The notes: a model not told the origin generated them from the sequence alone. 64,000 nt of DNA from a virus (IMGVR_UViG_3300033120_000579:38863-102862); one strand, 5' to 3'. Positions 4,275 to 22,067 are shown, numbered from the stretch's first letter. Numbers and translations: made by a program.

Positions 4275-4288
4275 TATACCCTATAAAT

Positions 4289-7200
4289 TTATTTACCAAA
4301 TCTACTGTTTAATCCATTATATAATTCTTCAGAAGTAACTTCTAATTTACTTAATACTGGAATTAATTTTTCAGTTTTTCTAACAATTTTTAATTCACCT
4401 TTATTTTTACCTGTTTGATATTTATCATCAATTTCAGCCCAATTCCAAGGTAAAATATATTCAGCTACATCTAATGTTTGCTCAATAATTCTAAGTGATG
4501 GAATAGGACTTTTAGTAATTTTAGTAGCCTCTCTAGGATCTCTAAATTGACTAAGTTCAGATTCTAATCTTCTTGATAAGAATGCAACTGTCCATAACCA
4601 TTTGTTATCATCATCTCCATCTGCTGCACCTGCAGCTAACATTCCAATTAATGGAAGTATTGCTCCAGTTAAAGCTAATTCCATTACAGACTTTTTAATA
4701 CCAGCTTTTTTATCATCTGATAATTCATTCCAGTTAGAACTTAATATATCAAATTTAAGTTGTCTTAAAGCAGGATAAACCCCATGAATAAGAAATCTAG
4801 CTGTACTTACATAAGAACCTTCTTCAGTAGTTCTAAGTGCGTTATTAAAATGAATATCTTCTTCAGTTAAGTTGTCTTGATGTTTATAAAATGATTGAGC
4901 ACCTCTAAATCTAGCTACAGCTTGTGGTATTAAATAACGTCTAAACAACATTATCATTTTACCCCACCAATGTCTATAAGCTTCAGGTTGTAAATTAGAA
5001 TCATAATTACCCATTGTGTCAAAAATCTTTTTCTTTACAAATAATAATAGTTGTTCCTTACCGCCTTCATTAAGTTTAGAACTTAAACTTCTATTAGTAT
5101 AAACAACTTTATCATTCATTCTAACAATACCTTTATCATCTTTAGCTAACATGTCTAATACTGATACAGCATCTTTTTCACTTACAATTTCACCATTTTT
5201 ATTAATGTAATTATTATTAATATCCATAACTTTAATAGATTCTAGTGTAGCCATAACCATAATAGATTGAACATAGTGTTCACCTCCAGAATGTAAAATT
5301 TGTAAAGATTCAAAATTGACTGCTGTTTTAGCAATACTATTTTTAATAAATTCTTGTTGTTGAACTGTAAATCCACCAAAAGTATCAAACATTTGATTAA
5401 CCTGATTTACAAATGATTGTTTAACTGGTCTAGAATAATCTCCAAAAATATTAGGTAAATCTTTAGTATAAATTTCATTAGCTTTTTTAACAGAACCTTT
5501 AGTTAAATGATTACCTGCAACTCTTTCTAAAAATATTTGAGCTTGAGCATTTAAAACGTTTGCTGCTGCTGAAAATGTATTTAATGACAAACCTATAGAA
5601 GATACCCAACTATTAGTTGTACTAATAATTTTATTAACATCTAAAGGTCCCATTTTACCATAAGTAATATGAAATAAATCATAAATATTCTTTTCAATTA
5701 AATTACTAATCATTTTATATTCATTAGAATCAATACCTCTTTTAGTAGATTCTTTTTCTCTTTTAGCATATTTATTTAAAATAGAAATATTTCCTGCAGT
5801 TTTATTATAGTATTCTTTATTTTTAGCAATCATTTTAATTGCTTCAACTTGTAATGAAATAGCTTGTTTTTCTTTGTAATTTATACCATTAATACGATTT
5901 AAACGATTGATTGTAAATAAGTCTAAAGATTGTTGATCTGGGCTAATATCACCTCTGTAATGAACTCTTAACATATTTACAGAATTACCTTTACTATCTA
6001 AACGTTGTTCAACATATCCAATATCATCAGGTCTAATTTCAGTTAAATCTTTCCAAGCATCTTTTAAAATACCTTTAGTATTACCTTCAAGAATTCTTTC
6101 TTCATTAGATTTGGTTACAGAAGGTAAATTATAATAAGTAATTCCTAAAAATGGTTGAATTAATGATTGAATACTATTAGTTTGAGTATCTGTAATTTTA
6201 GTATCACTAATAAAATGATTAAGAACTTCTTTTTCAATTTTACTTAATTTAGATAAATCATTTTTCCATTTACTAGTTGGTATTTTAATTCCATCTACAT
6301 TAACAGTATTATCTTTTATAAATTTAGAAAATTTATTTCTAGCTTTAATATATTCAACATCTTTAGAATTATTTTCAGAAGCTTTATATTTAGCTATTTT
6401 ATCATTTTTTAATCTTAAATATTCTTCTCTAAATTTAATAGAGTATTCTCCTTTATAATAAGCTTTACCAGTACTATCAAATTCTAATAAATTGGTATAT
6501 AATTTAGTTGGGATACTAGAACCTCTTTCTTTAACTAATTTATCAAATAATTCAGCATCTTTAAAATCACCTTCTCTAGTTTGTTCAATAATTTTTTCTC
6601 TAGCTTGAGTAATTAAGTTAAATGTAATACTAACTAATCTAGAATTATTATTAATAGCATCCATAAATTTAACAGAAGCTGAAGAAATATCTGTTCCAAT
6701 ACCAATTAATAATAATTCAATTTCTTTATCTAAATCAAGTTGTATCTCATCTTTAAATGTAGTATTCATTTGTTGAGAAACCCATTCAGTTTGACTTATA
6801 TTAGTTAAACCTCTTTGTTTAAATTCAGCATTTAATCTTTTTCTCCATTTATCTTCAATTTGAGGTAAATAATTAATATTATTTAATTGATTTTTAAGAA
6901 TATCTATTAATTTACTATTAAGTCTTTTCTCTAATAAATCATGTTTACCTGTTGCATCTGATATACTTTTTTCTATTTCATCAACAAGTTCTTGACCAAC
7001 TTCATCAATTTTATCTTGATTTAAAGAAGTAATTAAAGTTGAAACATCATCAATTAAATCATAAGAAGACATATAACTTTTATACAATTCAATTATTTCT
7101 AAACCATTAGATTGAGTTAAATCTTCATTTTTAAGTCTAGTTTCTAATTGTTCAATTGTTGATAACATTGATTTAGTATAAACTGCTACACCTTTCCATT

Positions 7201-8374
7201 GATTAATTCCATCAACTTTATCTATTTCAGAAATTAATTCTTTAATATGTTGTTCAAATTTAGTACCTTTGGCTTCATTATTTTTTTTATAAGACTTACT
7301 ACGGTCTAATAAATTATCTAAATTATCTTTAGCTTTATTTAAAGTTCTATTAAGTCTATCTTCGATTGTTTCAATTTTAGATTTAGAAGATTCTTTTTTA
7401 TTAGCAAATATTAATTTTTGTAAATTAGTACCTCTATAATCTCTTCTATCTTGTTGAACATAATCAACAACTTCTTCAATAAGTTTATCTATTTCCTTAG
7501 TCTTAGCTAATCCAAATAAGCGTCTTATAGCGTCAATAAATTGTTTCCAATATGAAGTATTATTTTCTCGATCTAAAGCTTTTAATTCTTCTCTAAATGC
7601 TTTATTAGCATATATTTCAGCTACAAATTCCTTTTCATTTGTAAATCCATAACTTTGTATATCTAAAGAAAAATCTCCTATATCTTTAACACTTTTATCA
7701 ACTTGTTTATTAAAATAATTAATATACCATTTATTAATTAAATTTTTAAAATCTTTTTCTTCAAAAGTTTGAGGATTTAATAGAGCTTGTAATGTTTGAG
7801 AATGTGCTAATTCATGTAAAAATGTTTCAACTACTTCATCTGTAGTAAAATTACCTAATCTTTGTCTATTTGCTTGAATTGTGTTAGTATCACTATTAAT
7901 TTGCATAACAGTATTTTCATCAGACATTGCTACTTCAGATACAAATTGAAATTTAGCTCCAGTTCTACCAATTAATCTTCTAGATTTTTCTAATAATTCA
8001 ATACCAATAGGAGATAAATTCTTATAATTATTAAGAATATTTTCAAGAATTTCATCTACAGTAATCTTACCTTGTTGATTATTAAATAAAACTCTATTAT
8101 TTTCATTAGAATAATCAATTGTTTCATCACTAATAACTTCAGTATTTTCACTCCAATCTAATTCATTTTTTTTAGACCCTTTAAGATTGTTAAAAATATT
8201 TTCAACTTTTTCAATTTGTTCAGATTGAATTACATCTTCAACTTTAGGGTATGAATCTAAACCATTTTTATCTTGATATTGACTTATTCTCATTTCTAAT
8301 AAAAGTGAAGGAAGCTTAGTAGCTTCCAACAACTCTTGAAATTCTTTTGAACTGGTGTTAATGCAGTTTACCAT
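4289..8374 (-). CDS. Giant virion cargo/ejection protein with N-terminal zincin-like domain (1361 aa)
   Basis: HELAH followed by NEKEFVAE (HExxH...E); C-terminal hydrophobic segment; third of three giant genes around the RNAP, as in crAss-like phages. Confidence 0.75.
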   Translation of the reverse strand: MVNCINTSSKEFQELLEATKLPSLLLEMRISQYQDKNGLDSYPKVEDVIQSEQIEKVENIFNNLKGSKKNELDWSENTEVISDETIDYSNENNRVLFNNQQGKITVDEILENILNNYKNLSPIGIELLEKSRRLIGRTGAKFQFVSEVAMSDENTVMQINSDTNTIQANRQRLGNFTTDEVVETFLHELAHSQTLQALLNPQTFEEKDFKNLINKWYINYFNKQVDKSVKDIGDFSLDIQSYGFTNEKEFVAEIYANKAFREELKALDRENNTSYWKQFIDAIRRLFGLAKTKEIDKLIEEVVDYVQQDRRDYRGTNLQKLIFANKKESSKSKIETIEDRLNRTLNKAKDNLDNLLDRSKSYKKNNEAKGTKFEQHIKELISEIDKVDGINQWKGVAVYTKSMLSTIEQLETRLKNEDLTQSNGLEIIELYKSYMSSYDLIDDVSTLITSLNQDKIDEVGQELVDEIEKSISDATGKHDLLEKRLNSKLIDILKNQLNNINYLPQIEDKWRKRLNAEFKQRGLTNISQTEWVSQQMNTTFKDEIQLDLDKEIELLLIGIGTDISSASVKFMDAINNNSRLVSITFNLITQAREKIIEQTREGDFKDAELFDKLVKERGSSIPTKLYTNLLEFDSTGKAYYKGEYSIKFREEYLRLKNDKIAKYKASENNSKDVEYIKARNKFSKFIKDNTVNVDGIKIPTSKWKNDLSKLSKIEKEVLNHFISDTKITDTQTNSIQSLIQPFLGITYYNLPSVTKSNEERILEGNTKGILKDAWKDLTEIRPDDIGYVEQRLDSKGNSVNMLRVHYRGDISPDQQSLDLFTINRLNRINGINYKEKQAISLQVEAIKMIAKNKEYYNKTAGNISILNKYAKREKESTKRGIDSNEYKMISNLIEKNIYDLFHITYGKMGPLDVNKIISTTNSWVSSIGLSLNTFSAAANVLNAQAQIFLERVAGNHLTKGSVKKANEIYTKDLPNIFGDYSRPVKQSFVNQVNQMFDTFGGFTVQQQEFIKNSIAKTAVNFESLQILHSGGEHYVQSIMVMATLESIKVMDINNNYINKNGEIVSEKDAVSVLDMLAKDDKGIVRMNDKVVYTNRSLSSKLNEGGKEQLLLFVKKKIFDTMGNYDSNLQPEAYRHWWGKMIMLFRRYLIPQAVARFRGAQSFYKHQDNLTEEDIHFNNALRTTEEGSYVSTARFLIHGVYPALRQLKFDILSSNWNELSDDKKAGIKKSVMELALTGAILPLIGMLAAGAADGDDDNKWLWTVAFLSRRLESELSQFRDPREATKITKSPIPSLRIIEQTLDVAEYILPWNWAEIDDKYQTGKNKGELKIVRKTEKLIPVLSKLEVTSEELYNGLNSRFGK

Positions 8375-11300
8375 TATTTACATTTTTTAATATACTCTTT
8401 AACATATTCTTCTCCAAATTCTCGAATCATATCATTAAATTGTTCTTCATTAATATTACTTTCTTCCATTACTTCTTTATTTTGAATCCATAATTTATCT
8501 TCTAATTCAGATTCTTTTTTAACAATAACATTCTCTCTATAAAATATATCTCTAGGATAAATAGCTTCATTATTAAAAAACTCTAATTGTTGTTTATTCA
8601 TAATTCCAGCAATACCTTTAGTAGGTTCTCTAAGATTAATACCTTCTATATCAAAGTTAATAATTCTATTACCTTTCTTATCTTTTACATTAAGATTTTT
8701 AATATCAGTGTATTCACCATTAATATTAGGAATGAATCTAGTATAAATTCCTTGATAGTTTGAATTATATCCAATTAATTTATAATAAATTGGTGGTAAA
8801 CCTTGATCATTCTTTTTAATTCTAAAATAACTTACTTTACCAGGTTTCTTAACCAAGAATCCATTCAAATTTCTTAATTCTTTTTGAATTTGACCATCTG
8901 TAATATTTTTAACAAACTTAGTATCTTCTAAATTAGATAAAAAGAATTGATCTATAAAATTATCATCATTAAATTCTTCATAACCATCATATTTAAATGA
9001 TGTATCAATTATATATCTATTGATATTATTTCTATTAAACCATTGTGTAGGAATCATAGTAAAGAATTGACTCATATGATTATTAAATCCAGATGTTAAA
9101 TATGAATATTTAATAAGTTTATTAGCAAATTCTTCATGATCATTTAATAAATCTAAAAATGAATTAGTCATACTATCTTCAAATTCTTTAGATTTTTTTC
9201 TATTATTTAAACCTACAAATTGTAGAATATCACCTTGTTTAATAGTCATTTGATCTATAATAGAATATAAACCTTCATTATCTTCTTTAAATAATTCAAA
9301 TTCTTTAACAAAATTTAAAGTTAAATCTCTTCTTTCTTGATTAGTCATTTTAAGTGGTTGAAAACCTGACATAATATAACTATAAAAAGTTTTATCTAAT
9401 TGTTTACTTAAATTTTGATCTAATAATACTTCATTATTAACATTATGTGATATTTCATTAAAAGTATCTTGAATAGTGTCATTAGCAATTAAGAATAATT
9501 TAGGATTAGCTTTAACTATTTGTTCAGGTTTAATAATTATATTTTTATAATATTTACTAAACATACTTTCAGAACCATTTGGATTTGTAAATTTAGAACT
9601 AAACCCTAATATAATATTTTTCTTAAATTTAATTTTATCTTCATAAGATAAATTATTATATTTTTCTTCGGCATCTAATATAGAATCTACAGCATTTTTA
9701 GATATAATTAATGAATTAACACTACCTCCAATACCATTTACCATAAATTTAGATGCATCAATATTAGTTTTAATTGCTTTAGATGCGGATTGATATTCTA
9801 AAAAAGTATTAAATACATCCATTTGAAATTTATCATCAATATCCAATATATTACTTCTTAATGTATTTAAATTTTTATTAAAAATATTACCTTTAAAATA
9901 ATTTTTATATTCTTCTTGACCAAATCTTTGTTTAATAAAAGCTTCCATAGTACTAAGACCTTGATTTTGAGAACTTTCATATTGTTCAGAAAATTCTACA
10001 TATTCTTTAATAACTGGCTGTGCTAAGAAAGCATTTACATAAAATGGATGTACACCTTTACGAAGTAACAAATTACCTGTATTAGTTGTCATAGTAACCC
10101 AATTACCTTCTGTGATATATGGATCTTTAGCTATATCTACAAATGCATTAAGAATTGCAGATAATGAATGTCCAATTTTAATAGATTTTAATTTATTAAC
10201 TTCTTCTTTACTAAGATTTAATTCTTTAGCATAATAATCTAAATCAGATTGAGATAATTCTTGTGAATATTCCATATCTAACTTATCATTACTTCTAGGA
10301 ACTTCAAAATTAGTTATATTTAAATCAGCTAAACTTCCTAATACATAATCCATTAATGAGTTAGCTTGTTGTCCTACACCAGCTTTACCCGCTAAGAAAC
10401 TATATTTAACATCTATATCTTTTAATTGATTAAATGTAGATAAATTAGTTGTAGGTGCTACTTTAGAAATACTTCTAATATCATTTTTAATATAATCAAA
10501 ATCTACAGGTGTCATTACTTCACCAATAACATTTTCATTTAATAAAACAGATTTATATAACTCTATTAATCTATTTTGTAAAGCTTCTTTAGTTTGTTCT
10601 GATTCAGGTTTAGAATTATCATAATTTTGATAAACTAATTTATTATTTTCAACTTTATAAGCTGGAAACATTAGATACATTTTATCAATATCATAATCAG
10701 ACCCTGTTTTAGTAGTAATACCTGTATAAGCTACAACAGTATCACCAGTTTCTTCTGGTAATATTCCAACTATTTCTAAAGCATCATTAGAAGATAATCC
10801 TTGATTAGGAATTCTATATCCAATAATATTTTCTAATATTCTTTTATCAATTACTTCATTAAATAATTGTTCTGCTGTATATTTTTTATAATCTGGAATA
10901 TATTTAGCTATAAAACTACCTGATAATAATATACCACCAGGTCTAATTACTTTTTTACCATTTTCAGATAATATAAATTCACCATTTTCATCTTTAAGAA
11001 ATTGTGGCTCATGAGTAGTAGATAGCGCTCTAGGACTCCATATAACACCTTGTTTATTAGCATTTTCTTTATTAAGTCCAAAGTTACTCATTTGAATAAA
11101 TGACCCACCATTAGTCTTAATTTTAAGAATTCTTTTAGTTAAGATAGAACTGAATATATTTTGTAATTTATCTTTAGCTTGAGCTACTCCATAAATACTA
11201 ATTTCAGATTCTAAAGCATCAATAACATTTTGTGAACCACCTCTAGATTTTAATTCAGATATAATAGAATTATAAAATCCTTCAATATTAGTTATAGTTC

Positions 11301-14300
11301 CATCTTCAGTAACTCCAAATTCTTTTAATACTGATTCATAACCTAAGTTTGATAATTCACCAATCACATTAGCAATATTTCCAATCATTTGATTACCTGA
11401 AACTTCTTCATTATTTAAAATAAATTCTTTATCTAAATTAAAAGCAAGACCTTGAAATATATTCTTTTGAATTTGAGAACCTACTTCAGTATCATGCATT
11501 CCTTTAACAGGTAAATCTTGTTGAAGTTTCCATCCATTAGAAGGAATTGTAAATGGTTTAAATTCAAAATTATCTAAAAGTTGACCATTATCATTATGAA
11601 TCTTAGTTGGTTGATTAGAGCCTACTTTAATTGCATCAAATGTAACTAACTCATCAACTTCTTGAGCAATCATTTGATCATATATTTTTTCAAGTTCATT
11701 ACCTTTACGTAGTTTAGGTGATAAAACAGCTTGTGAATATTTAAGAAATATTGGAATTCCATCTACAACTTGAAAGTAAACACCTTTTAATGGTGGAGCT
11801 ACAGCTTTTAACTCTTCTACAGTAAATGGTTCATTATTATTACCAAGTAATTTTTCATATACAGAATCATAAATATTATTCCATTTACCAATAGATTGTA
11901 CTAAAGTTTTCCATCTAGTTGGAGTAATCCAAGCTTGTGCATCTGCAGAATTAATATTTTTATATTTATTAGCTAAATCTTCACCTAATAATTCAACTAA
12001 TTCTGGTAAAAAAGGTGAAGCTATCTCAACACTTTCAATTGAAGCAATTGTATAATCTTTATTAATATTATCTAATCTTTGATATAATCCATCTGTATAT
12101 GTAGCAGGTACTCTTTTTTTATAATCTATTGCATTTTTATAATATGCAACATCTCCTGCAAACATTTTAGAATATTCAACATGAGATATTAATGAATTTA
12201 TAAAGAAATCTGCAGAAGCTTTTAATGCATTATCAGATTTATAAGACTCCCATATTTTAGTATCCAGTTCTTTATTAACAATACCTTCTGAAGTTTCTTC
12301 AAATATTTTATTCTTAATTAAGTTATCTAAAGTTTCTTGAATACCATTTGATAATTCATTACTTATATAAAATTTAATATCTGATTCAAATTGTGAACCT
12401 TTTAATGTACTTAAATAAGCATTACCATTAGCATTATATATGTTTTTAAAATTTAAATCTGAACCTTTTAAAGTATTGTTAATTTTATCAAATGATAATG
12501 ATGGAAATAATTGTGATTTAAATGCATGTCCAGCTCCTAAATGATAATAAGTTCTTAATTTATCACTATTTTTAGGATCATTCATAAACTCACGTTCAAA
12601 TTTCATTCTTTTGTATTCAACATCAAAATAGTTAAAAACTATATCGATAGCTTCATTATTAATAATGATATTATCATTATCTCCATATCTAGCATTAGTA
12701 GATAAATTTCTACTAATTGCTAATTCATATTGGGTTCCTTTATCAGCAGGAGTTGTGGTTCTATAAAAAGATTGAACTCCTTTAGTAAAACCTAATACTT
12801 TATTAATTGTATCTGAAATATATTCTTGTTTTGAAATAGTTTTATTATCTTTACCTTCTCTTGCATTTTCATCCATTTGATAAGTATTAAAAGAATATAT
12901 TTCTAATTCATTAATACGTTTTTGAGATTCTTTAATTCTTTCTTGTTCTTGAACAGGTGGTGGTAAAAACTCATTAACTTGATATGTATTATCTAAAGCT
13001 AATAAATATTTCATCCAATCAGAACCTTCATTATATTTAGAAACTTCATAATGTTTTAAAAGAATATTTCTATCTTTTTTCCAAGCTTTAATTGTATTAG
13101 ATAAATATGAAGGATATGAATAAACCCACTTCTGTTTACCTGCGGTAAATACAGAAGCATCAGAACCTTCAGATATATAAAAAGCTTCAGCCTTAGCTAA
13201 TTGCTTAAATACAGTTTGATCTGATAAAACATTATCATAATTCTTATTTTTATTATCAATAATATTTTTAATAAAATAATTTATATCATTAATTGCTTTA
13301 GTAAATATAGTTTTAGATAATTCATTATCATTATTAATAAGTTTTAAATCATCAATAAAATGTTGGAATCCTTTATTAGTACTTTCAACACCTAGTTTTC
13401 TAAGAATATTAACTATATTTTGAACATTATCTAATTGATCATATTTAATTTTATTTAATTCAGTTCTAATATTAGTTAACTTATCTCTATTTTCTTTAGA
13501 AATAGTATTATCATCTGTAACAAATTTAGATTTGAAATTTTTATTCCATTCATTAAAGATATCAGATTCTTTTTTACCAGTTTCAGATATATTAATATTA
13601 GTTACTTCTTTAGTACCATCTTCATTATATTTATTAATAGTAGTATTATAATTATTAGTATCTAAATTAAATGCTTGACTAAATTCATCTTTAATATTAT
13701 TACTTAAATCTGATTGAGATAAAATTCTATATAATTCTTTAAAATAAGGTTTCTTATTTTCAAATTTTAATATTTCAGATTTTAATATTTCAAATTTATC
13801 TTCTTGAACAGCATCTTTAATAATTGCAATTTGATTTGTTAACTGAGGTAATAATGATGCATATATTTCATCAAAAGATTTATATACAGTATCATTTAAG
13901 AAATCATCTTGTTGAATAGTATCTTCAATTAAAGATAATCTTAATTTAACATTAGCTGAAATATTATTTTTAGTTGTTCTTTCATTTGAAGATATACCAA
14001 ATCCTGGATCTTTTTCATTCTCATTAATTTCAATTTCAGATAAATCAATATCTTCAATATCGTTAAATTTTTCAGAATATTTAATCTTATAAGTTTCTAA
14101 TGAATTAACTACATTTTTTACAATTTCATCTAAATTTTCATTTAATGCAATTTCTAATAATTCAGCAGTATCTTCAAATAAATAATCACCACTATCTTTA
14201 AATATATTAATTCTTTCATTTAATTTATTAACAATACTATCTCTAATTGAAATAGTTTTTGTATTCAAATCAATATTTTCAAAATCAATTTTTAGATTAT

Positions 14301-14694
14301 TTTTAAAATAGTTATTAACAAGTACTTTAGTAATACGTTCAATTTGTTCATTTGAAAATAAAGATTTTAATGATTTAGTATTTTCAATAATTTCAACTTT
14401 ATTCTTATCTTTATCTATATAATAATAGTTACCATTCTTTTCATTCTTAAAAAGTTTAGGTTCACCATTTTCTTCAATACGAGATATTTCTTGTTGATAA
14501 CTATAATCTACAGATTGCATTAAAGGTTCTATACCATAATCATCAACCCAATTACCAAAATTAGTTAAGAAATCAATATCGTTTTTAAAATAGGAATGAA
14601 GAGTTATTGCTAACTCCTCATCACCATTATAAGCTTCTAGTATTGTATTATATAAATTGGATTCTTGTCCATTTACTTCAAATTTACATGCCAT
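8374..14694 (-). CDS. Virion-packaged single-chain RNA polymerase (phi14:2 gp66-like, 2106 aa)
   Basis: GYRIPNQG and TGSDYDIDKMY (DxDxD catalytic loop), ADAQAWI, KGVY...LKYS, LQQD, AFVDIAKDP; size and position match crAss-like virion RNAP. Confidence 0.92.
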   Translation of the reverse strand: MACKFEVNGQESNLYNTILEAYNGDEELAITLHSYFKNDIDFLTNFGNWVDDYGIEPLMQSVDYSYQQEISRIEENGEPKLFKNEKNGNYYYIDKDKNKVEIIENTKSLKSLFSNEQIERITKVLVNNYFKNNLKIDFENIDLNTKTISIRDSIVNKLNERINIFKDSGDYLFEDTAELLEIALNENLDEIVKNVVNSLETYKIKYSEKFNDIEDIDLSEIEINENEKDPGFGISSNERTTKNNISANVKLRLSLIEDTIQQDDFLNDTVYKSFDEIYASLLPQLTNQIAIIKDAVQEDKFEILKSEILKFENKKPYFKELYRILSQSDLSNNIKDEFSQAFNLDTNNYNTTINKYNEDGTKEVTNINISETGKKESDIFNEWNKNFKSKFVTDDNTISKENRDKLTNIRTELNKIKYDQLDNVQNIVNILRKLGVESTNKGFQHFIDDLKLINNDNELSKTIFTKAINDINYFIKNIIDNKNKNYDNVLSDQTVFKQLAKAEAFYISEGSDASVFTAGKQKWVYSYPSYLSNTIKAWKKDRNILLKHYEVSKYNEGSDWMKYLLALDNTYQVNEFLPPPVQEQERIKESQKRINELEIYSFNTYQMDENAREGKDNKTISKQEYISDTINKVLGFTKGVQSFYRTTTPADKGTQYELAISRNLSTNARYGDNDNIIINNEAIDIVFNYFDVEYKRMKFEREFMNDPKNSDKLRTYYHLGAGHAFKSQLFPSLSFDKINNTLKGSDLNFKNIYNANGNAYLSTLKGSQFESDIKFYISNELSNGIQETLDNLIKNKIFEETSEGIVNKELDTKIWESYKSDNALKASADFFINSLISHVEYSKMFAGDVAYYKNAIDYKKRVPATYTDGLYQRLDNINKDYTIASIESVEIASPFLPELVELLGEDLANKYKNINSADAQAWITPTRWKTLVQSIGKWNNIYDSVYEKLLGNNNEPFTVEELKAVAPPLKGVYFQVVDGIPIFLKYSQAVLSPKLRKGNELEKIYDQMIAQEVDELVTFDAIKVGSNQPTKIHNDNGQLLDNFEFKPFTIPSNGWKLQQDLPVKGMHDTEVGSQIQKNIFQGLAFNLDKEFILNNEEVSGNQMIGNIANVIGELSNLGYESVLKEFGVTEDGTITNIEGFYNSIISELKSRGGSQNVIDALESEISIYGVAQAKDKLQNIFSSILTKRILKIKTNGGSFIQMSNFGLNKENANKQGVIWSPRALSTTHEPQFLKDENGEFILSENGKKVIRPGGILLSGSFIAKYIPDYKKYTAEQLFNEVIDKRILENIIGYRIPNQGLSSNDALEIVGILPEETGDTVVAYTGITTKTGSDYDIDKMYLMFPAYKVENNKLVYQNYDNSKPESEQTKEALQNRLIELYKSVLLNENVIGEVMTPVDFDYIKNDIRSISKVAPTTNLSTFNQLKDIDVKYSFLAGKAGVGQQANSLMDYVLGSLADLNITNFEVPRSNDKLDMEYSQELSQSDLDYYAKELNLSKEEVNKLKSIKIGHSLSAILNAFVDIAKDPYITEGNWVTMTTNTGNLLLRKGVHPFYVNAFLAQPVIKEYVEFSEQYESSQNQGLSTMEAFIKQRFGQEEYKNYFKGNIFNKNLNTLRSNILDIDDKFQMDVFNTFLEYQSASKAIKTNIDASKFMVNGIGGSVNSLIISKNAVDSILDAEEKYNNLSYEDKIKFKKNIILGFSSKFTNPNGSESMFSKYYKNIIIKPEQIVKANPKLFLIANDTIQDTFNEISHNVNNEVLLDQNLSKQLDKTFYSYIMSGFQPLKMTNQERRDLTLNFVKEFELFKEDNEGLYSIIDQMTIKQGDILQFVGLNNRKKSKEFEDSMTNSFLDLLNDHEEFANKLIKYSYLTSGFNNHMSQFFTMIPTQWFNRNNINRYIIDTSFKYDGYEEFNDDNFIDQFFLSNLEDTKFVKNITDGQIQKELRNLNGFLVKKPGKVSYFRIKKNDQGLPPIYYKLIGYNSNYQGIYTRFIPNINGEYTDIKNLNVKDKKGNRIINFDIEGINLREPTKGIAGIMNKQQLEFFNNEAIYPRDIFYRENVIVKKESELEDKLWIQNKEVMEESNINEEQFNDMIREFGEEYVKEYIKKCK

Positions 14695-14696
14695 AA

Positions 14697-17600
14697 TTAT
14701 TTACATCTTTTTTTGTATTCTTGAGGATACATTTCTTTAAACATTTCAAAATCTCTTAATTCTTTTTCAGTAGTTAAAGTTCCCTCTTGTTTCTTTTTAA
14801 ATAAAACATCCATTCTTCTAAAATCAGTTTGTCTTTCTTTAGGAGTTCTTTTAGTATCAAAAACTTTATCTTGAGTTTCTTTTATTTCAGTATTTTCCAC
14901 AGTTCCAGGTATTTCTGACAAAGATAAGAAATTTTCTTGAGAATTCCTATTATTTTGTTGATTATTTTTAAATCTTTTAATTACTTCAGATAAAGCTTCT
15001 TTAGGATAACCTTTTTCATCTACATTATTTCTCCAAAATTCTTCCGCTTTTTCTTCTATAGTTTTTTCTTTTTCAAACAAATCATCAAATCCTGTATTAT
15101 CAGCTTTAACTTCAACACCTGCTTCTGAAACTTTTGGTTGATTAGCTACTGTAATACCTGTATTTAAATAAATATTAGTATAACCTTGAAATGTTGGTTC
15201 ATTAACTACTGCATTTGTAGATAATATATTATTATCAACTAAATATTTAAGATAATCTGCAGAATTAGATTTAAGATTAGTTTTGGTATTATCTGTTTCA
15301 GATTTCATATTAATTTTAATCTGATGTCTTTTTTGGTTAACTAAAAAATCTGTAATATTTACTTGTGCTAAATCTATAAATTTTGGAGTTGTAAATTGAT
15401 CTCCATAATATAAGACACCATTTTCAATTCTTATTCTAGATTTAATATTATCAGATTGATATACTAATAAATCTACAATTTCTTGAAGTTTAATATCATT
15501 TTTATTACCACCAATTATATTTAATTCTGCTTCAAAATTAACTGTAATTGCTTCTTTCAATTCTTCATTAATTTCAGAAATAGTTGTATCCAATGATTTC
15601 TCATTAGTTATAATCTCTTTATAAATTTCATAAAGTAAATAAGCTTCACTTTCACTAATCTTTTTAATATTAAGTTTGAGTGGAAAAAGTTTACCATTAG
15701 CTTGAGGAATAGTTAAATATATTTCACCTGCAGCATTTGGTTTAATTTTATCATTGTTAAATTCAAATATTTTATCATTTAATATATTTTGCAATTTACC
15801 AAATGAATTAACTACATATAAATTTTCTCTAATATAATTTAAATCTTTAACTCCGTCTAATTGAAGAATATTATTATTAGCAAATCTATTTTCATCTACT
15901 TTTAATATACCTTTATATTGATCTTGAATTGTAGTTTTAATATCATTAATATCAATACCTTTAATTAAATTATTAACAATATCAATTCTTAATAACTCTG
16001 TAGCAGGATTGATTTCATCTGTAATTCTTCTAGTTTCAATTGGAGCTTTAACTTCATTTGTAAATTGTACATTTATAGGTAAATAATCTATTAGTAATTT
16101 AGGATTAGAAAAATCTTTATTATTAAATGCATTTAAAGCTTCTAATACTTTAGGATTTTTACCAGGATTTTGATTAATTTCAAATCCAACTTCCTTACCA
16201 GATTTATTAACAGGTTCTCTCTCGTATTCTAAATATAAAGGAAATTGTTCTGATATAAATTGTAATGGTAATCCAGTATTTCTATCTGTACTAATAACTT
16301 TAACACCTAACCCGCTATCTACTTCACTATTTTGAATACTATTAAGCTCTTCTACTGTATTATTTTCAGCTTCTTGAGGTATAAGTTCATCTGTAATAAC
16401 TGAACCTTCTGTAGCTGTTAAACCATCATAAGTAGTTACATTATTGAAATCATTATCTTCTTGTGTAGCATCTTCTCTTTCTTGATTATTAATAACTTCT
16501 TCAACAGCAATAATTTCAGCTTCTTTTTCATTAGCTTGTTGTTGAATTATTGTATCTGCTGGAGTATCTGTTTTAGGAAGATTTTGAAGTTCATCTACAG
16601 TTGTAGCATTAGTTATAATTTCAGTAGCTTTATTTACAATAGCTTCATTTTCAAGACTAGCTTGTTCTCTTAATTTATTATTATCTTTAATATGTTCTGC
16701 AAATTGTTTATTTACATCTTCATCGTTCCAAATAGTACCATTAATAATTTCTTCTATTTCAGATATTTCTTTTTCTATAGATTCAATTTGATTATTTATT
16801 AATTTAACTCTAGGGTCTGTATCAGTTTTTTTAAATTTATAAATTTCTTCTGAAACACCTTCAATAAAGTTTTCATTTAATTCTCTAGTTAATTCATTAC
16901 TACCCAAATCTTTTAATAATTTAGATTTTTGAATATTAAGTTTTTTAAGTTCTCCTTTTTGAAAATATTCTGAACCTTTAAGATTAATATATAAATCTCC
17001 TAACATATTATAATAATCTATAGTATCTTGAGGAGTTGCATTTGGATTATCAAGATTAATTAAACTTTTACTAAAATCTTTATAAGTATTTAATTGATCT
17101 TGCATATATGTAGCTTGTTCAATTATTTTAGTTTTTAAAGTTTTAGCATCTTCATTATTAACTATTTCTTCAGTTTTTAAAGTTTCATCTAAATATTGTG
17201 ATAAAGCTTGAATACCTAATTCACCTTTATTAATGAATGGAGTTATAAGTTGATTTATTGCTTCATTCTTTAAAGTTTGAATCACTTGTTCATTACCTTC
17301 TTGAATAGCTTGATCAAATAATTGACTTTGTTGTTCAGTATAATTTAAAGCTTTAGCTACATCTCTTACTTTTACAGGATCATATTGAGGTTGATTATTT
17401 TTATAAATAATATCACCATTTTGGTCTCTTTTATAAGTATCTGTTTCATTAATTCTATTAAAAGAACCAACTTTTTCTTCAGCTAAACTAAGCACATCTT
17501 GAGTTTGTTTACGTGTAGCTATATCAGATTTAGCTCCTTGATAAGCTGACACACCACTACCTAGAAATCCACCTAAAAAGATTGCTTTTTGACCATCTGT

Positions 17601-18797
17601 AGTATTTAAAGTATCAATATAACTAGAAACTAATTCAGGAATGTTAAAATCTTTTAACATATTGTTAGTTAACTGTCCTTTATTAGCTTTATCTGTAAAC
17701 ATTGTTTCAACAGTAGATTGAGTACCTTCTTCTAAAAAACCTTCAGAGGCAGTCGCACCTAATATATTCTTAGTTCTATTACTAATTTTACTCATTAATG
17801 AAGGAGTATCTTTAACTAATTGACTACCAACGCCTTTACCCCAAATCATCTTAGTTTGAATTGCATTTGGAACTAAAAGTATAGCTAGATTAGATACAAA
17901 TATATCTCTACCTAATCTAGCTTTTTGAATTTGTAATTCTTCATATTGAGTTTGATCTATTTCACCAGAAGCTAATCTTCTATCTATATCTTTTTGAAAA
18001 CTATCCATTGCTGAACCAGCTTCTGAACCAGATTCAAATAAAGTATTAGCCATTGTCATCGCTCCTAAATCTATATTATTGGCAGTTATACCTAAACTTT
18101 CTAAAGTATTAACAGCTCCAGCTAATTTAGATTCACCATTTATCATAGATAAACCTTTAGCAGTAGTACCTAATACTTTCTCACCTAAATTAAGACTTTT
18201 TAAAGCTGCTCCAGGTGCAAACATAGATGCTATAAAACCTATACCGTCAGCACCTTCGGTAGCCCAGAAATCTATAGATGTTATATTATCCATAAGATTT
18301 CCTTCTGAAACTGCTTTTTTTACATATACTGGTAATAATTCAGTATTGATATTTTCATTTAATTGAGATAAAGATTTAATCCATTGATTATTAAAAGCAG
18401 TATCCCAACCCTCACCTTCTTCTGCAAATGGAGCGGCTAATATACCACCAACAACTCCAGGCATTTTTAATATTTCTGTTACAGCTTTTGTACCAATTCT
18501 ACCAATACCTGCTCCAATTTTAGCTAAATTAGATTGAGATTGTGCTCTATTTTCATTAATAGAACCTATTGGATCTAATTCATCTAATTGAGAATCAAAA
18601 TTAAATTCTTCATCATATTTAGAATCACCAAACCCAGTATTATAGTATAATTTATTAGAATAAACTTTACCTAAATCTGTAAAATTATTAGGTTTATCTA
18701 AATTTTGAGCTACACTTCTAAAAGTTTTAGTTTTAGGTTCTCCAGGAGAACTGTTTATATTTGGACTTGAATTATTTACCAATTGAGCCATAAGCAT
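14697..18797 (-). CDS. Giant virion cargo/ejection protein (about 1364 aa; start probably ATG 18791)
   Basis: Gly/Ala-rich membrane-like helices in the N-terminal third, EGFLEEGTQ motif, coiled coils; directly upstream of the RNAP. Confidence 0.75.
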   Translation of the reverse strand: MLMAQLVNNSSPNINSSPGEPKTKTFRSVAQNLDKPNNFTDLGKVYSNKLYYNTGFGDSKYDEEFNFDSQLDELDPIGSINENRAQSQSNLAKIGAGIGRIGTKAVTEILKMPGVVGGILAAPFAEEGEGWDTAFNNQWIKSLSQLNENINTELLPVYVKKAVSEGNLMDNITSIDFWATEGADGIGFIASMFAPGAALKSLNLGEKVLGTTAKGLSMINGESKLAGAVNTLESLGITANNIDLGAMTMANTLFESGSEAGSAMDSFQKDIDRRLASGEIDQTQYEELQIQKARLGRDIFVSNLAILLVPNAIQTKMIWGKGVGSQLVKDTPSLMSKISNRTKNILGATASEGFLEEGTQSTVETMFTDKANKGQLTNNMLKDFNIPELVSSYIDTLNTTDGQKAIFLGGFLGSGVSAYQGAKSDIATRKQTQDVLSLAEEKVGSFNRINETDTYKRDQNGDIIYKNNQPQYDPVKVRDVAKALNYTEQQSQLFDQAIQEGNEQVIQTLKNEAINQLITPFINKGELGIQALSQYLDETLKTEEIVNNEDAKTLKTKIIEQATYMQDQLNTYKDFSKSLINLDNPNATPQDTIDYYNMLGDLYINLKGSEYFQKGELKKLNIQKSKLLKDLGSNELTRELNENFIEGVSEEIYKFKKTDTDPRVKLINNQIESIEKEISEIEEIINGTIWNDEDVNKQFAEHIKDNNKLREQASLENEAIVNKATEIITNATTVDELQNLPKTDTPADTIIQQQANEKEAEIIAVEEVINNQEREDATQEDNDFNNVTTYDGLTATEGSVITDELIPQEAENNTVEELNSIQNSEVDSGLGVKVISTDRNTGLPLQFISEQFPLYLEYEREPVNKSGKEVGFEINQNPGKNPKVLEALNAFNNKDFSNPKLLIDYLPINVQFTNEVKAPIETRRITDEINPATELLRIDIVNNLIKGIDINDIKTTIQDQYKGILKVDENRFANNNILQLDGVKDLNYIRENLYVVNSFGKLQNILNDKIFEFNNDKIKPNAAGEIYLTIPQANGKLFPLKLNIKKISESEAYLLYEIYKEIITNEKSLDTTISEINEELKEAITVNFEAELNIIGGNKNDIKLQEIVDLLVYQSDNIKSRIRIENGVLYYGDQFTTPKFIDLAQVNITDFLVNQKRHQIKINMKSETDNTKTNLKSNSADYLKYLVDNNILSTNAVVNEPTFQGYTNIYLNTGITVANQPKVSEAGVEVKADNTGFDDLFEKEKTIEEKAEEFWRNNVDEKGYPKEALSEVIKRFKNNQQNNRNSQENFLSLSEIPGTVENTEIKETQDKVFDTKRTPKERQTDFRRMDVLFKKKQEGTLTTEKELRDFEMFKEMYPQEYKKRCK
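14917..14950 (-). promoter_or_regulatory. Intragenic Bacteroidota-type promoter upstream of the RNAP gene
   Basis: Minus strand ATAGGA-N18-TATCTTTGTC, with the same boxes and 18-nt spacer as the seven intergenic copies. Confidence 0.65.
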
Positions 18798-20571
18798 TTA
18801 ATATAAATTCTTGAAATTTTGCATCAGGAAACTCCTGATCTACATTTGTACCATCATTATCGATATAAGATAAATTATAACTATTTTTATTTTTATTATA
18901 TTTAATTTCTACATTTTTTAAACCGTATGCTTCAAATAAAGGAGATTTGATTTCATGATAAATACCAGGTTGAATGTCTGCAATTTTACTAATTCCACTA
19001 ATAGTTTCCATAGCTTTAAATTGAGGAGTATTAAAATCATCAGCACCTCTACTTACATATACAGTTTTAACTTCACCAGTTTCTTTATCAATTAAAACTC
19101 CTGTTCTAGCACCAATATTTTGTTTAGGATTTGTAAATTTATTACCAATATTAGATTTAGGTGTCATATCTCCACTATATGTGAAAGTAAAATTACCTAA
19201 TTCATTTTTATCAATTTTATTACCATCTTCATCTACCATATCATAAGCTCCTCTTTGAACACGTTCTAAAATAAGATTACCTGCTTTTTCTTTACTATCT
19301 TTACCTGTTAATTCTTTACTTGCAAACAACATTGCTTGTGGGTTTGTATTAGGATCTACATATCTATTTTGAACAGTTACATCTTTATTATCTTCTAAAT
19401 ATTTAGTCACAGCATTCTGAACTTTTTGACTTTTTAAATCTGAACCAAGTTTTTGGGTTCTAGCAATACCTCTAGCTAATTTTAAATATTCTTGAGAATC
19501 TAAGGTTTCTTTTTTTGCTTTTTCTTTAAATTGTGCAGTATTTAAATTTTGTTTAATTCCAGCTCTAGATGCAACAATATCAATTGGTTGATTATCACTA
19601 TATGAAATATTTCCTTTTAATCTATTTAATAAATCAGAATTTTTAGTAATACTAACACCTTCAACATTAACTGCTTCTAAATTTCCTTCTTCTACATCTT
19701 TTTTAGTAAAACCTTGAACATTATAATCAGTTTCTCTAGTATCATCTAATTTATAAGTTTTCATCATACCTAAACCATTATTAATTTCATTAATAATTCT
19801 TTTAGGATCAATTCTTTCAAAATTAGCTGAAGCAGTTCCTTCACCTGTTGAATTAATCCATCTACTAGCCAAATAATCTTGAGCTTCTTTTAGTTGAGGT
19901 ATATTACTAGTTTCAACAACTCTACCTTTACCATCCATTACAACAAGACTACCATTCGGTCCTTCTTGAAAACTAAATCCATTATTTTTCATAATAGTTC
20001 TAGTATTTTCTCCAAGTAAAGATTTTACAGTTTTTAAATCTTCCTGTAAAATTAACCTTTTAGGTGCACCATAAGGTGTAATATTAGTTATGTTTTTATT
20101 TTCATCAAAACCTGTATATTTAGGTTTATGTAATGTTTCCCAATTATATAAAGCATCTTCTCTAGAAAAACCTTTATTTTTAGTAGCATCTTCTAAATAT
20201 TCTTTAAAATTATCAGCATAAACTTTTTTAGCTGTATTAATTTGACCTAATCTACCTGTTGGAGATATAAGATTCTGATATTCTCTATTTAATGCTAAAA
20301 ATTGTCCTTGTGTATTTGAATTAACACCTTCTCTACTTAATAATTCAGCTTGAGATGTTAATTTATCTTCTATTTGAGATTTAAGATTTAAAGCTTCATT
20401 CATATGTACATCCAACGGATCAACTTTAGCAAGACCCTGTTTTAATAACTCCTGTTGAGCTATTAATTGATCATGTTTTTGTCTTTGCATTAAAGGTGTA
20501 TAAAGTATCTCTTGCATTGATAATGGAGAGAATTTTGAAACACTTCCTGAACTATAACGATTTACTGCCAT
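18772..20571 (-). CDS. Virion cargo/core protein (599 aa)
   Basis: Cys-free helical protein in the cargo operon; coupled to neighbours. Confidence 0.65.
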   Translation of the reverse strand: MAVNRYSSGSVSKFSPLSMQEILYTPLMQRQKHDQLIAQQELLKQGLAKVDPLDVHMNEALNLKSQIEDKLTSQAELLSREGVNSNTQGQFLALNREYQNLISPTGRLGQINTAKKVYADNFKEYLEDATKNKGFSREDALYNWETLHKPKYTGFDENKNITNITPYGAPKRLILQEDLKTVKSLLGENTRTIMKNNGFSFQEGPNGSLVVMDGKGRVVETSNIPQLKEAQDYLASRWINSTGEGTASANFERIDPKRIINEINNGLGMMKTYKLDDTRETDYNVQGFTKKDVEEGNLEAVNVEGVSITKNSDLLNRLKGNISYSDNQPIDIVASRAGIKQNLNTAQFKEKAKKETLDSQEYLKLARGIARTQKLGSDLKSQKVQNAVTKYLEDNKDVTVQNRYVDPNTNPQAMLFASKELTGKDSKEKAGNLILERVQRGAYDMVDEDGNKIDKNELGNFTFTYSGDMTPKSNIGNKFTNPKQNIGARTGVLIDKETGEVKTVYVSRGADDFNTPQFKAMETISGISKIADIQPGIYHEIKSPLFEAYGLKNVEIKYNKNKNSYNLSYIDNDGTNVDQEFPDAKFQEFILNAYGSIGK

Positions 20572-22067
20572 TATTTTCTTTTATTTTTAAATAAGTAACC
20601 ACCTAAAGCTTTAGAATTACTATCAATTAATATTCCAGCTTTTCTAGCGGCTACTTCAGTTTCTTCAGATGTTGCTGTAGGATTCATTTTTTGATATTCT
20701 CCAAGCCAATTATATCCAGTAGTTGTACTAGCTATTTTTTTATATATTTCTTCTTTACCAATATCACCAATTCCATTTCCAATTTCAGCTAAATATTTAG
20801 AACGCTCATTATTGTAAGCTGCTTCATTTCTATCATTAATATCTAATTCTAAATTATCTTGTTGTAAATTAGTAGCATTAATTCCAGCATTAAATTGTTG
20901 ACCCTGTACATTAGTTGCCCTATTTTGAGCTTCTGCATTTATATAGGCTTCTGATAAAGCTTTAGTTCTATTAAGACCTGCTCCTAAAATATTATTTCTT
21001 AATGCTCCAATAGAACCATTACTAGCTCCACTTAAAGAATTAATAGTATTATTAGTTTCATTAGATATAATATTTTGTAAACTTCTTTCATCTACATATT
21101 CAGGATTAAATCTTTGATCTAATCTATTAAGTTTTGAATAACTAGGTTTTTCTAATTCTGATAATTGATAAGCATTCATAGCAATTGGTGTATATCTGGC
21201 AGCTTGCCCTAAAGTACTTCCTAATTTAGATAAATCTGCTTTAGGTAGTTTATAACTTTCTGGAATAATTAAACCATTAGATTCTAGATTAATCCCCTCT
21301 GTAATAGCTAAATCATTAATAATCGTATTATCAATACCTAATCTTTTTAATTTTTCAATTTCTAATAAATCAGCATCTGGATTTAAAGGACCTCCTTTAG
21401 CATACATTTTACCACCATAAGCAAAATCATTACTAAATTGATTACTTTCTTTAATATGTTTTCTTCTATTAGCTGCTTCTTCTTCAGATTTATTACCTAA
21501 TTTAGAAATAAATCCACCAGCTAAATCTCCAACTACACCACCAATCATTCCACCAATTGGACCACCAATAGCAGTTCCTGCAATAGTAGTACCTGCTTTA
21601 ACACCTGAATTCAAAGCTTGTTCATTATTTCCAGTTGCTAAATTAGTTATAGAATCTATCCCTGATTCAACTCCTGGTAATGACATCATTTCCATTTCAC
21701 CACCTAAAAACATTTGATTTTGACCTAATGTATTTCCAGGTTCAATTGGTTTCATTAATTCTTGAGCTTCTGCAATTTTAGATAACATTCCGTCTTTAGT
21801 AGATAATGAAATTTTATCATTTCTATCTTTAAATTTATTATCTATAAACTTAGTAGCATCTGCCATAGTTTTATTAGTTAAAGATTTAGGTAGGTTATAT
21901 TGTTTAATTATTTCAGGAGTAAGTTTAATTCTATTACTATAAACAAAACCATTTTGAACAGTTTCTCCTTCTTCTACAGTATTATTGCTATTCATAGGCA
22001 CACCACCTAGAATATTTTCTGAATGTAGTCCTCCTTCATCAATTTTAGTTAAATCATTTTTTCTCAT
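20571..22067 (-). CDS. Virion cargo protein (498 aa)
   Basis: GGxH(S)EN..GGVP....VEEGET N-terminal motif, FAYGG/YAKGG/ALGG repeats and a Gly-zipper segment typical of crAss-like cargo proteins. Confidence 0.7.
   Translation of the reverse strand: MRKNDLTKIDEGGLHSENILGGVPMNSNNTVEEGETVQNGFVYSNRIKLTPEIIKQYNLPKSLTNKTMADATKFIDNKFKDRNDKISLSTKDGMLSKIAEAQELMKPIEPGNTLGQNQMFLGGEMEMMSLPGVESGIDSITNLATGNNEQALNSGVKAGTTIAGTAIGGPIGGMIGGVVGDLAGGFISKLGNKSEEEAANRRKHIKESNQFSNDFAYGGKMYAKGGPLNPDADLLEIEKLKRLGIDNTIINDLAITEGINLESNGLIIPESYKLPKADLSKLGSTLGQAARYTPIAMNAYQLSELEKPSYSKLNRLDQRFNPEYVDERSLQNIISNETNNTINSLSGASNGSIGALRNNILGAGLNRTKALSEAYINAEAQNRATNVQGQQFNAGINATNLQQDNLELDINDRNEAAYNNERSKYLAEIGNGIGDIGKEEIYKKIASTTTGYNWLGEYQKMNPTATSEETEVAARKAGILIDSNSKALGGYLFKNKRK

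Follow-up and report, generated by a model that had tools for sequence, protein, structure and literature searches.

Paired cysteines at the facing ends of injected crAss-like phage proteins and their possible role in a disulfide-linked chain

Ejection proteins of described phages and the module of the window

The most abundant human gut viruses belong to the Crassvirales, in which the delivery of about 700 kDa of protein through a narrow tail is an open question (PMC10172136). In two cultured members, Cellulophaga phage phi14:2 and crAss001, a giant RNA polymerase (RNAP) and its two large companion proteins are virion components, and the RNAP is delivered into the host (bioRxiv 10.1101/2020.03.07.982082; PMC10172136); in other crAss-like phages, the three have been noted as fused polyproteins (bioRxiv 10.1101/2020.03.07.982082). 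Here, we analyse the corresponding genes, termed A, RNAP and C, in a 64,000-nucleotide stretch (IMGVR_UViG_3300033120_000579:38863-102862; hereafter the window) of a complete 102,862-bp IMG/VR virus genome. This genome has a GC content of 22-30% and belongs to an uncultured marine crAss-like phage whose nearest cultured relative is phi14:2 (Steigviridae), with the RNAPs of the two phages being about 34% identical (tblastn). Together, proteins A, RNAP and C of the window contain four cysteines, each of which lies at an end that faces a neighbouring protein in gene order.

A structural precedent for such an arrangement exists in the cyanopodophage A4 (Anabaena phage A-4L), in whose pre-ejectosome cryo-electron microscopy revealed a disulfide between Cys1715 of gp27 and Cys5 of gp26 (PMC12002296). 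As in the window, the proteins concerned are neighbouring giant ejection proteins that are free of cysteine save for the facing terminal residues, Cys1715 being the sole cysteine of gp27 (1717 amino acids, aa) and Cys5 that of gp26 (1114 aa) in the A4 genome. Pf-WMP3 and Pf-WMP4, which are about 26% identical to A4, likewise have a sole cysteine 2-3 residues from the end of the upstream protein and a sole Cys5 in the downstream protein; these relatives came from a phage database, and an IMG/VR search with A4 gp26 returned A4 alone. The signature is conserved among distant relatives both in the Crassvirales and in the Saffermanviridae. A phmmer comparison of A4 gp26-gp29 with all open reading frames (ORFs) of the crAss-like modules gave no match at E values up to 10, so that the likeness is one of mechanism and not of family. 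A4 differs from the crAss-like module in that a single link joins two proteins, no RNAP forms part of the chain and fused relatives are not known; its authors ascribed to the bond a stabilising role in a five-fold layered core, presenting it neither as a chain nor as a general rule (PMC12002296). What was already known is therefore one observed bond of this kind, and what is new is the rule in the Crassvirales: our literature search found no paper that mentions these cysteines or states this rule for the order, and the publications on phi14:2 gp66 and on the crAss001 structure do not mention the terminal cysteines. The recurrence of the signature in an unrelated cyanophage family, where it is seen as a disulfide, suggests a convergent and more general principle.

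Other ejection systems share the scarcity of cysteine. Like the window, the Schitoviridae encode a giant virion RNAP, which enters the host along with accompanying proteins, all of them strongly depleted in cysteine. The ejection proteins N4 gp50-gp52 and DEV gp71-gp73 are cysteine-free (PMC11445570), in agreement with what an initial annotation of the window had stated for the N4 virion RNAP. Unlike in the window, however, cysteine is wholly absent and no terminal pairs have been reported; the RNAP, which comes from an unrelated polymerase family, is one polypeptide of about 3400-3500 aa. Among the ejected core proteins of podophage T7 (gp14, gp15 and gp16), gp15 and gp16 are cysteine-free like the cargo of the window, but the only terminal cysteine is Cys2 of gp14, no facing pair exists, and the stack that the proteins build is symmetric, with copy numbers that differ between them. 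The fused crAss-like polyproteins have the same domains in the same order as the window, in a covalent state that disulfides would imitate. They differ from it in being held together by peptide bonds and in lacking cysteine (as in locus L011, described below), and their separation would need a protease instead of reduction. The corresponding blocks of phi14:2 and crAss001 resemble the window in their homologous RNAP, their gene order, an HExxH motif in protein C and the terminal-cysteine rule, whereas crAss001 departs from it in having its A-type gene on the other strand and one internal cysteine in gp50.

All three genes of the window lie on the minus strand. Protein A (14697-18797; 1366 aa) is the positional equivalent of phi14:2 g067 and crAss001 gp47. 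The RNAP (8374-14694; 2106 aa) matches phi14:2 gp66 in a phmmer search (PDB 6VR4, E = 1.4e-223), and protein C (4289-8374; 1361 aa) is the equivalent of phi14:2 g065 and crAss001 gp49. By analogy with these orthologues, A, RNAP and C are most likely packed in the virion and injected into the host, and the earlier statement that crAss-like phages deliver their RNAP agrees with the work on phi14:2 (bioRxiv 10.1101/2020.03.07.982082). Each of the four cysteines among their 4833 residues is located 2-4 residues from a junction-facing end, at exactly the codons and ends given in the initial annotation. Cys1365, the sole cysteine of A, is the second residue from its C-terminus (TGT, 14703-14705; KKRCK). 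The cysteines of the RNAP are limited to residue 3 (TGT, 14686-14688; MACK) and residue 2105, again the second residue from the C-terminus (TGT, 8380-8382; IKKCK). Protein C has Cys4 as its sole cysteine (TGC, 8363-8365; MVNC). The remaining ORFs of the window contain 125 cysteines in 12,718 aa (0.98%), a frequency that would put about 47 in the 4833 aa of the three proteins. By our own arithmetic, the chance of four cysteines all falling within four residues of the four junction-facing ends is about (16/4833)^4, or roughly 1e-10. The two proteins encoded upstream, of 599 and 498 aa, have no cysteine, as had also been noted before, and the five cargo proteins of the window (5930 aa) contain zero internal cysteines, compared with 0.98% elsewhere in the window.

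The tails of A (14697-14738) and RNAP (8374-8415) are alike, both fitting E-x-Y-x-x-E-Y-x-K-x-C-K, and this likeness is common to the close relatives L004 and L018. Lysine is the last residue of all five cargo-module proteins in the window. These features may stem from a shared signal for docking or packaging, or just from AT-rich composition.

Cysteine pairs at split and fused junctions

The terminal-cysteine pattern recurs in phi14:2, crAss001 and about 80 metagenomic relatives. Two IMG/VR scans yielded 85 RNAP relatives with 10-kb flanks, whose ORFs were assigned to A, R (RNAP) or C on the basis of BLAST comparison with 18 reference triplets; clustering of the RNAP cores at 90% identity left 69 non-redundant loci, with RNAP identities down to about 23%. 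In these loci, a cysteine lies within 12 residues of the end on both sides at 103 of 105 split junctions (45/47 for A|RNAP and 58/58 for RNAP|C), as had been predicted for genes that are kept separate; at L008, L009, L064 and L077, a single TAG at the junction was taken as a stop, judged by in-frame TAG counts. Conservation in orthologues, the lack of which the initial annotation had named as a point that would speak against its reading, is thus extensive. The outer ends of the module behave differently: a cysteine is present at none of 61 outer C-termini and at none of 56 outer N-termini in loci whose first module protein is A. An apparent outer N-terminal cysteine occurs in five further loci (L016, L024, L040, L080 and L086), of which L024 and L040 have an upstream truncated A tail bearing the partner cysteine; in L086, an unlabelled ORF lying upstream encodes 892 aa, with a cysteine at residue 891.

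As a background, a cysteine lies within 12 residues of the N-terminus in 8 of 148 neighbouring ORFs and of the C-terminus in 8 of 148, and their overall cysteine content of 0.277% compares with an internal content of 0.019% in the module (68 in 351,763 aa). The positions are also narrowly defined, with the C-side cysteine among the last three residues at 91 of 106 junctions and the N-side cysteine at position 3 or 4 at 89 of 106. In alignments of 43 relatives, the cysteine is the sole invariant column both in the A tails (last 220 aa) and in the RNAP heads (first 760 aa), where it corresponds to Cys3.

The pairs follow the state of the genes. In L011, A-RNAP-C is a single protein of 4726 aa with zero cysteines. 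Where A and RNAP are fused (L070-L075 and L081), the fusion protein has one cysteine, at its C-terminus, facing Cys 3-4 of C; where RNAP and C are fused (L036, L045 and L066), the one cysteine is N-terminal and faces that at the end of A. All of these loci lack cysteine at the fused junction, which bears out the earlier prediction that the pair would be lost on fusion. Conversely, C is divided in two in L068, and an additional cysteine pair is found at the new junction. The junction regions of the fused relatives are charged, low-complexity linkers free of cysteine, and alignments of fused with split junctions are too poor for a residue-level placement of the old junction. On a tree of the RNAP cores (IQ-TREE quick, LG+G4, 66 rows), the A-R junction changed state at least three times and the R-C junction at least four times, providing three phylogenetically independent pairs for each. 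Over 200 random pairings, the cysteine pair agreed in direction with the split state in, on average, 2.7 of 3 comparisons for A-R and 3.0 of 3 for R-C, and the opposite direction was never observed.

Cultured and gut phages show the same arrangement. In phi14:2, the sole cysteine of g067 (1797 aa) is its last residue, g066 (2180 aa) has cysteines 3 and 2179, and g065 (1421 aa) has Cys3 alone. In crAss001, gp47 (2341 aa) has a sole cysteine at 2339 and gp49 (1349 aa) at 5, and gp50 (2412 aa) has cysteines 5, 1334 and 2404, one of them internal. The Suoliviridae cr1_1 and cr118_1 have a fused A-RNAP followed by C, with a cysteine pair at the split, and the RNAP|C pair is retained in cr108_1 (Steigviridae). 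In crAss002 (Intestiviridae), gp32 has a cysteine second from its C-terminal end, and residues 33-35 of the annotated gp33 read M-S-C, matching the N-terminal consensus of the family; this M-S-C is probably the true start, the annotated one lying 32 codons too early (L092:13586-13690). Unlike the marine clade, gut lineages carry a few internal cysteines. Recoded stops are found in the giant genes of gut-type relatives, with TGA read as tryptophan in L012 (15-17 read-throughs per gene) and TAG as glutamine in L016, L084 and L085 (26-65 per gene), where several internal cysteines are tolerated.

A candidate disulfide chain and its rivals

We consider it likely that, within the virion, disulfides joining the proteins head to tail restore the polyprotein of the fused relatives. 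Cys1365 of A would pair with Cys3 of the RNAP, whose Cys2105 would in turn bond to Cys4 of C, and the product would be a single unbranched thread, A-S-S-RNAP-S-S-C, equal to the fused polyprotein. With the cysteines only 1-4 residues from the ends, each joint would be barely thicker than a polypeptide, the thinnest possible, and could traverse a narrow channel along with the partly unfolded proteins; in crAss001, the cargo must partly unfold to pass constrictions of less than 50 Å, and the virion holds other inter-subunit disulfides (PMC10172136). The purge of all other cysteines would preclude off-pathway cross-links. Once in the reducing cytoplasm of the host, the disulfides would be reduced, and A, RNAP and C would separate with no need for a protease to release the polymerase. 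If the cargo travels as a covalent but reducible thread, this would account for the order and ratio in which the proteins are injected, for the interchangeability of gene fusion and splitting in the module and for the removal of cysteine everywhere else in the cargo. For uncultured phages, the rule would predict which of their virion proteins are joined. A disulfide chain had already been proposed in the initial annotation. The split/fused pattern and the A4 precedent speak for it; the bond in crassviruses, its timing, the threading as one chain and the reductive release are inferences from sequence and analogy.

Could the cysteines instead be a functionless by-product, be it of a nucleotide signal at the junction (translational coupling), of gene splitting or of a tolerance for cysteine at protein ends? 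The two junctions of the window do share a DNA string, ATGTAAATAAT, around their stop and start codons. Yet crAss001 keeps the pair even though gp47 is a plus-strand gene and gp50-gp49 are on the minus strand, so that the rule cannot arise from junction DNA. Pairs are also kept across intervening genes, which span 350-1200 nucleotides in many loci and reach 6 kb in L017, and the cysteine is constant even as the residues beside it and the DNA of the junction vary. A mere tolerance predicts a frequency of about 5% at every end, as opposed to the observed values of near 100% at junctions and 0% at outer ends. The converse case is provided by L002, L019 and L031/L032, in which the RNAP ORF is interrupted within the catalytic motif and no cysteine is present at the break. 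The gap in L019 (14007-14284) is a group I intron (RF00028, 85 bits, E = 2e-22), and that in L002 (14119-15050) comprises two group I intron halves flanking a LAGLIDADG endonuclease gene; these introns were missed by Rfam gathering thresholds on whole loci and detected when the gaps were searched alone. Where the ORF is broken by an intron and the protein is not, there is consequently no cysteine pair. The terminal-cysteine rule operates on proteins rather than DNA. A junction motif at the DNA level is contradicted by the crAss001 strands and the distant pairs and was rejected, and we regard a by-product of any kind as very improbable. A split intein was rejected as well, given that the cysteines are at chain ends and that intein-sized domains are absent.

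Other explanations accept a role for the proteins and differ in what the thiols do. A metal ion (Zn, Fe or Cu) bound by both protein ends may join them in place of a disulfide, an arrangement that would fit the coupling to gene splitting and fusion equally well. Metal clasps made of short cysteine motifs from two chains exist elsewhere, and C bears an HExxH metal site, as judged by its motif. However, each end has one conserved cysteine with no second conserved Cys, His or Asp column beside it, two thiolates alone make a poor site for common metals, the single-split architectures have two cysteines in total (L070-L075), and the A4 pair of like signature is a disulfide, which together make a metal clasp improbable. 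We give about the same low credence, if marginally more, to the idea that each terminal cysteine bonds to another partner, forming homodimers or anchoring the protein to portal, capsid or tail. The sequence by itself is silent on which cysteine bonds which, and inter-subunit disulfides are numerous among crAss001 structural proteins, but such bonds leave unexplained why both junction cysteines disappear jointly on fusion, why the extra split in L068 adds exactly two and why the outer ends are free of cysteine. Less probable still are free thiols that serve in acylation for membrane insertion, as a redox sensor or in thioester ligation of the chains by a peptide bond. Basic residues often flank the cysteines, as they do at some acylation sites; no lipobox, signal peptide or intein-like fold is present at the ends, though, and a role in a single protein fails to account for paired gain and loss with splitting and fusion. 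The metal, other-partner and free-thiol readings are possible explanations, each of which explains the split/fused coupling less well than the disulfide chain.

Several points weigh against a disulfide chain. A disulfide has been seen directly in A4 only and in no crassvirus, the protein ends concerned not being resolved in any crassvirus cargo structure. Purified phi14:2 gp66 was crystallised alone, in the presence of 1 mM dithiothreitol (bioRxiv 10.1101/2020.03.07.982082), and for this reason is uninformative either way. Assembly takes place in a reducing cytoplasm, so that oxidation would be needed within the capsid or after lysis, and the anoxic life of the gut relatives is a difficulty for it. 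Neither a thioredoxin (PF00085) nor an Erv1-type oxidase (PF04777) was found in the 102,862-bp genome, a weak negative in that the PF04777 control matched no control genome; oxidation would accordingly be uncatalysed and spontaneous. The RNAP bears a cysteine at both its head and its tail and could cyclise, and the likeness of the A and RNAP tails in the window leaves pair specificity unexplained. Just 11% of the last 220 aa of A is conserved among the 43 relatives, and no docking surface is therefore evident. A complex prediction for this segment and the first 760 aa of the RNAP (43-row alignments) scored 0.03, against a mark of 0.32, and counts neither way. Exceptions exist at two A|RNAP junctions, where the sole cysteine of the upstream protein is 32 (L044) and 18 (L078) residues from the end. 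The one clear exception is the fused A-RNAP of L080 (4670-14983), which has a cysteine at residue 11 and an upstream ORF that lacks a C-terminal cysteine and has cysteines 41 and 44. Finally, independent splitting and fusion events are few, giving p = 0.25 for each junction alone; if all six pairs are taken as concordant, a two-sided sign test gives about 0.03 by our own arithmetic. The number of events is small, and the case draws its strength from the almost complete lack of exceptions over deep divergence.

A stronger version of the disulfide-chain proposal holds that the chain is needed for a fixed packing proportion and a sequential pull through the tail, that host reductants release the RNAP and that the design arose independently in the Crassvirales and the Saffermanviridae. 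We put this forward tentatively, as a conjecture that may well prove wrong in this full form. If true, it would represent a general design principle for phage protein injection, and infection would depend on host thiol reductases.

Neighbouring genes and insertions

The order muzzle, cargo 1, cargo 2, A, RNAP and C is common to the window, phi14:2 and most of 86 loci; crAss001 departs from it by an inversion that places its RNAP and C genes on the opposite strand. The muzzle protein (22213-26295, minus strand; 1360 aa; Pfam PF25731, E = 7.9e-201, and PF25729) is encoded next upstream of the cargo genes, lies outside the proposed chain and has four cysteines, all internal. Cargo protein 1 (20571-22067, minus strand; 498 aa) belongs to PF25725 (crAss_CARG1, E = 4.6e-18). 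Its neighbour, a cargo protein 2-like protein (18772-20571, minus strand; 599 aa), had no family match in PHROGs and Pfam scans and was assigned from its position between cargo 1 and A, the slot of the gp46-type gene of its relatives, which is the same in crAss001 and phi14:2. A PHROGs scan likewise gave no match for A, RNAP or C, and Pfam gave sub-threshold matches only.

In protein C, residues 187-191 form a zincin-type HExxH motif, HELAH (7802-7816, minus strand), within a segment (residues 159-196) that has a weak SprT-like Pfam match below the curated cut-off, a result that shows the motif and not the fold. Protein g065 of phi14:2 also has an HExxH motif (HEIMH at 245), and a zincin-like domain of phi14:2 gp65 was reported in the gp66 preprint (bioRxiv 10.1101/2020.03.07.982082). 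The RNAP gene of the window is uninterrupted, and its DxDxD catalytic motif is intact, with DYDIDKM at residues 1333-1339 (10678-10698, minus strand) identified from invariant alignment columns and the translation. Interruptions at the catalytic G-S-D / x-D-I-D-K-M motif are also seen at L031:11654-12597 and L090 (cr108_1):17107-17398. Compared with that of the window, the RNAP of L024 (2510 aa) has two in-frame, cysteine-free insertions (4286-4917 and 5732-5961), one of them adjoining the catalytic motif, which could be inteins or insertion domains.

Many marine relatives have a small same-strand gene between RNAP and C, which the window lacks. In some loci, it encodes a ferritin-like protein of 160-167 aa (PF00210; L019:16701-17204, L022:17506-17988, L024:8327-8821 and L078:7710-8204, the last sitting between A and RNAP instead), in others a DUF5856 protein of 117-120 aa (L006:17248-17601 and L026:19131-19493). 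It is curious to find an iron- or oxidant-handling protein within a cargo operon that apparently relies on thiol oxidation. Upstream of the cargo genes, L005 contains a DUF805b RNA motif (L005:370-401; RF02914, 47 bits, above the gathering score).

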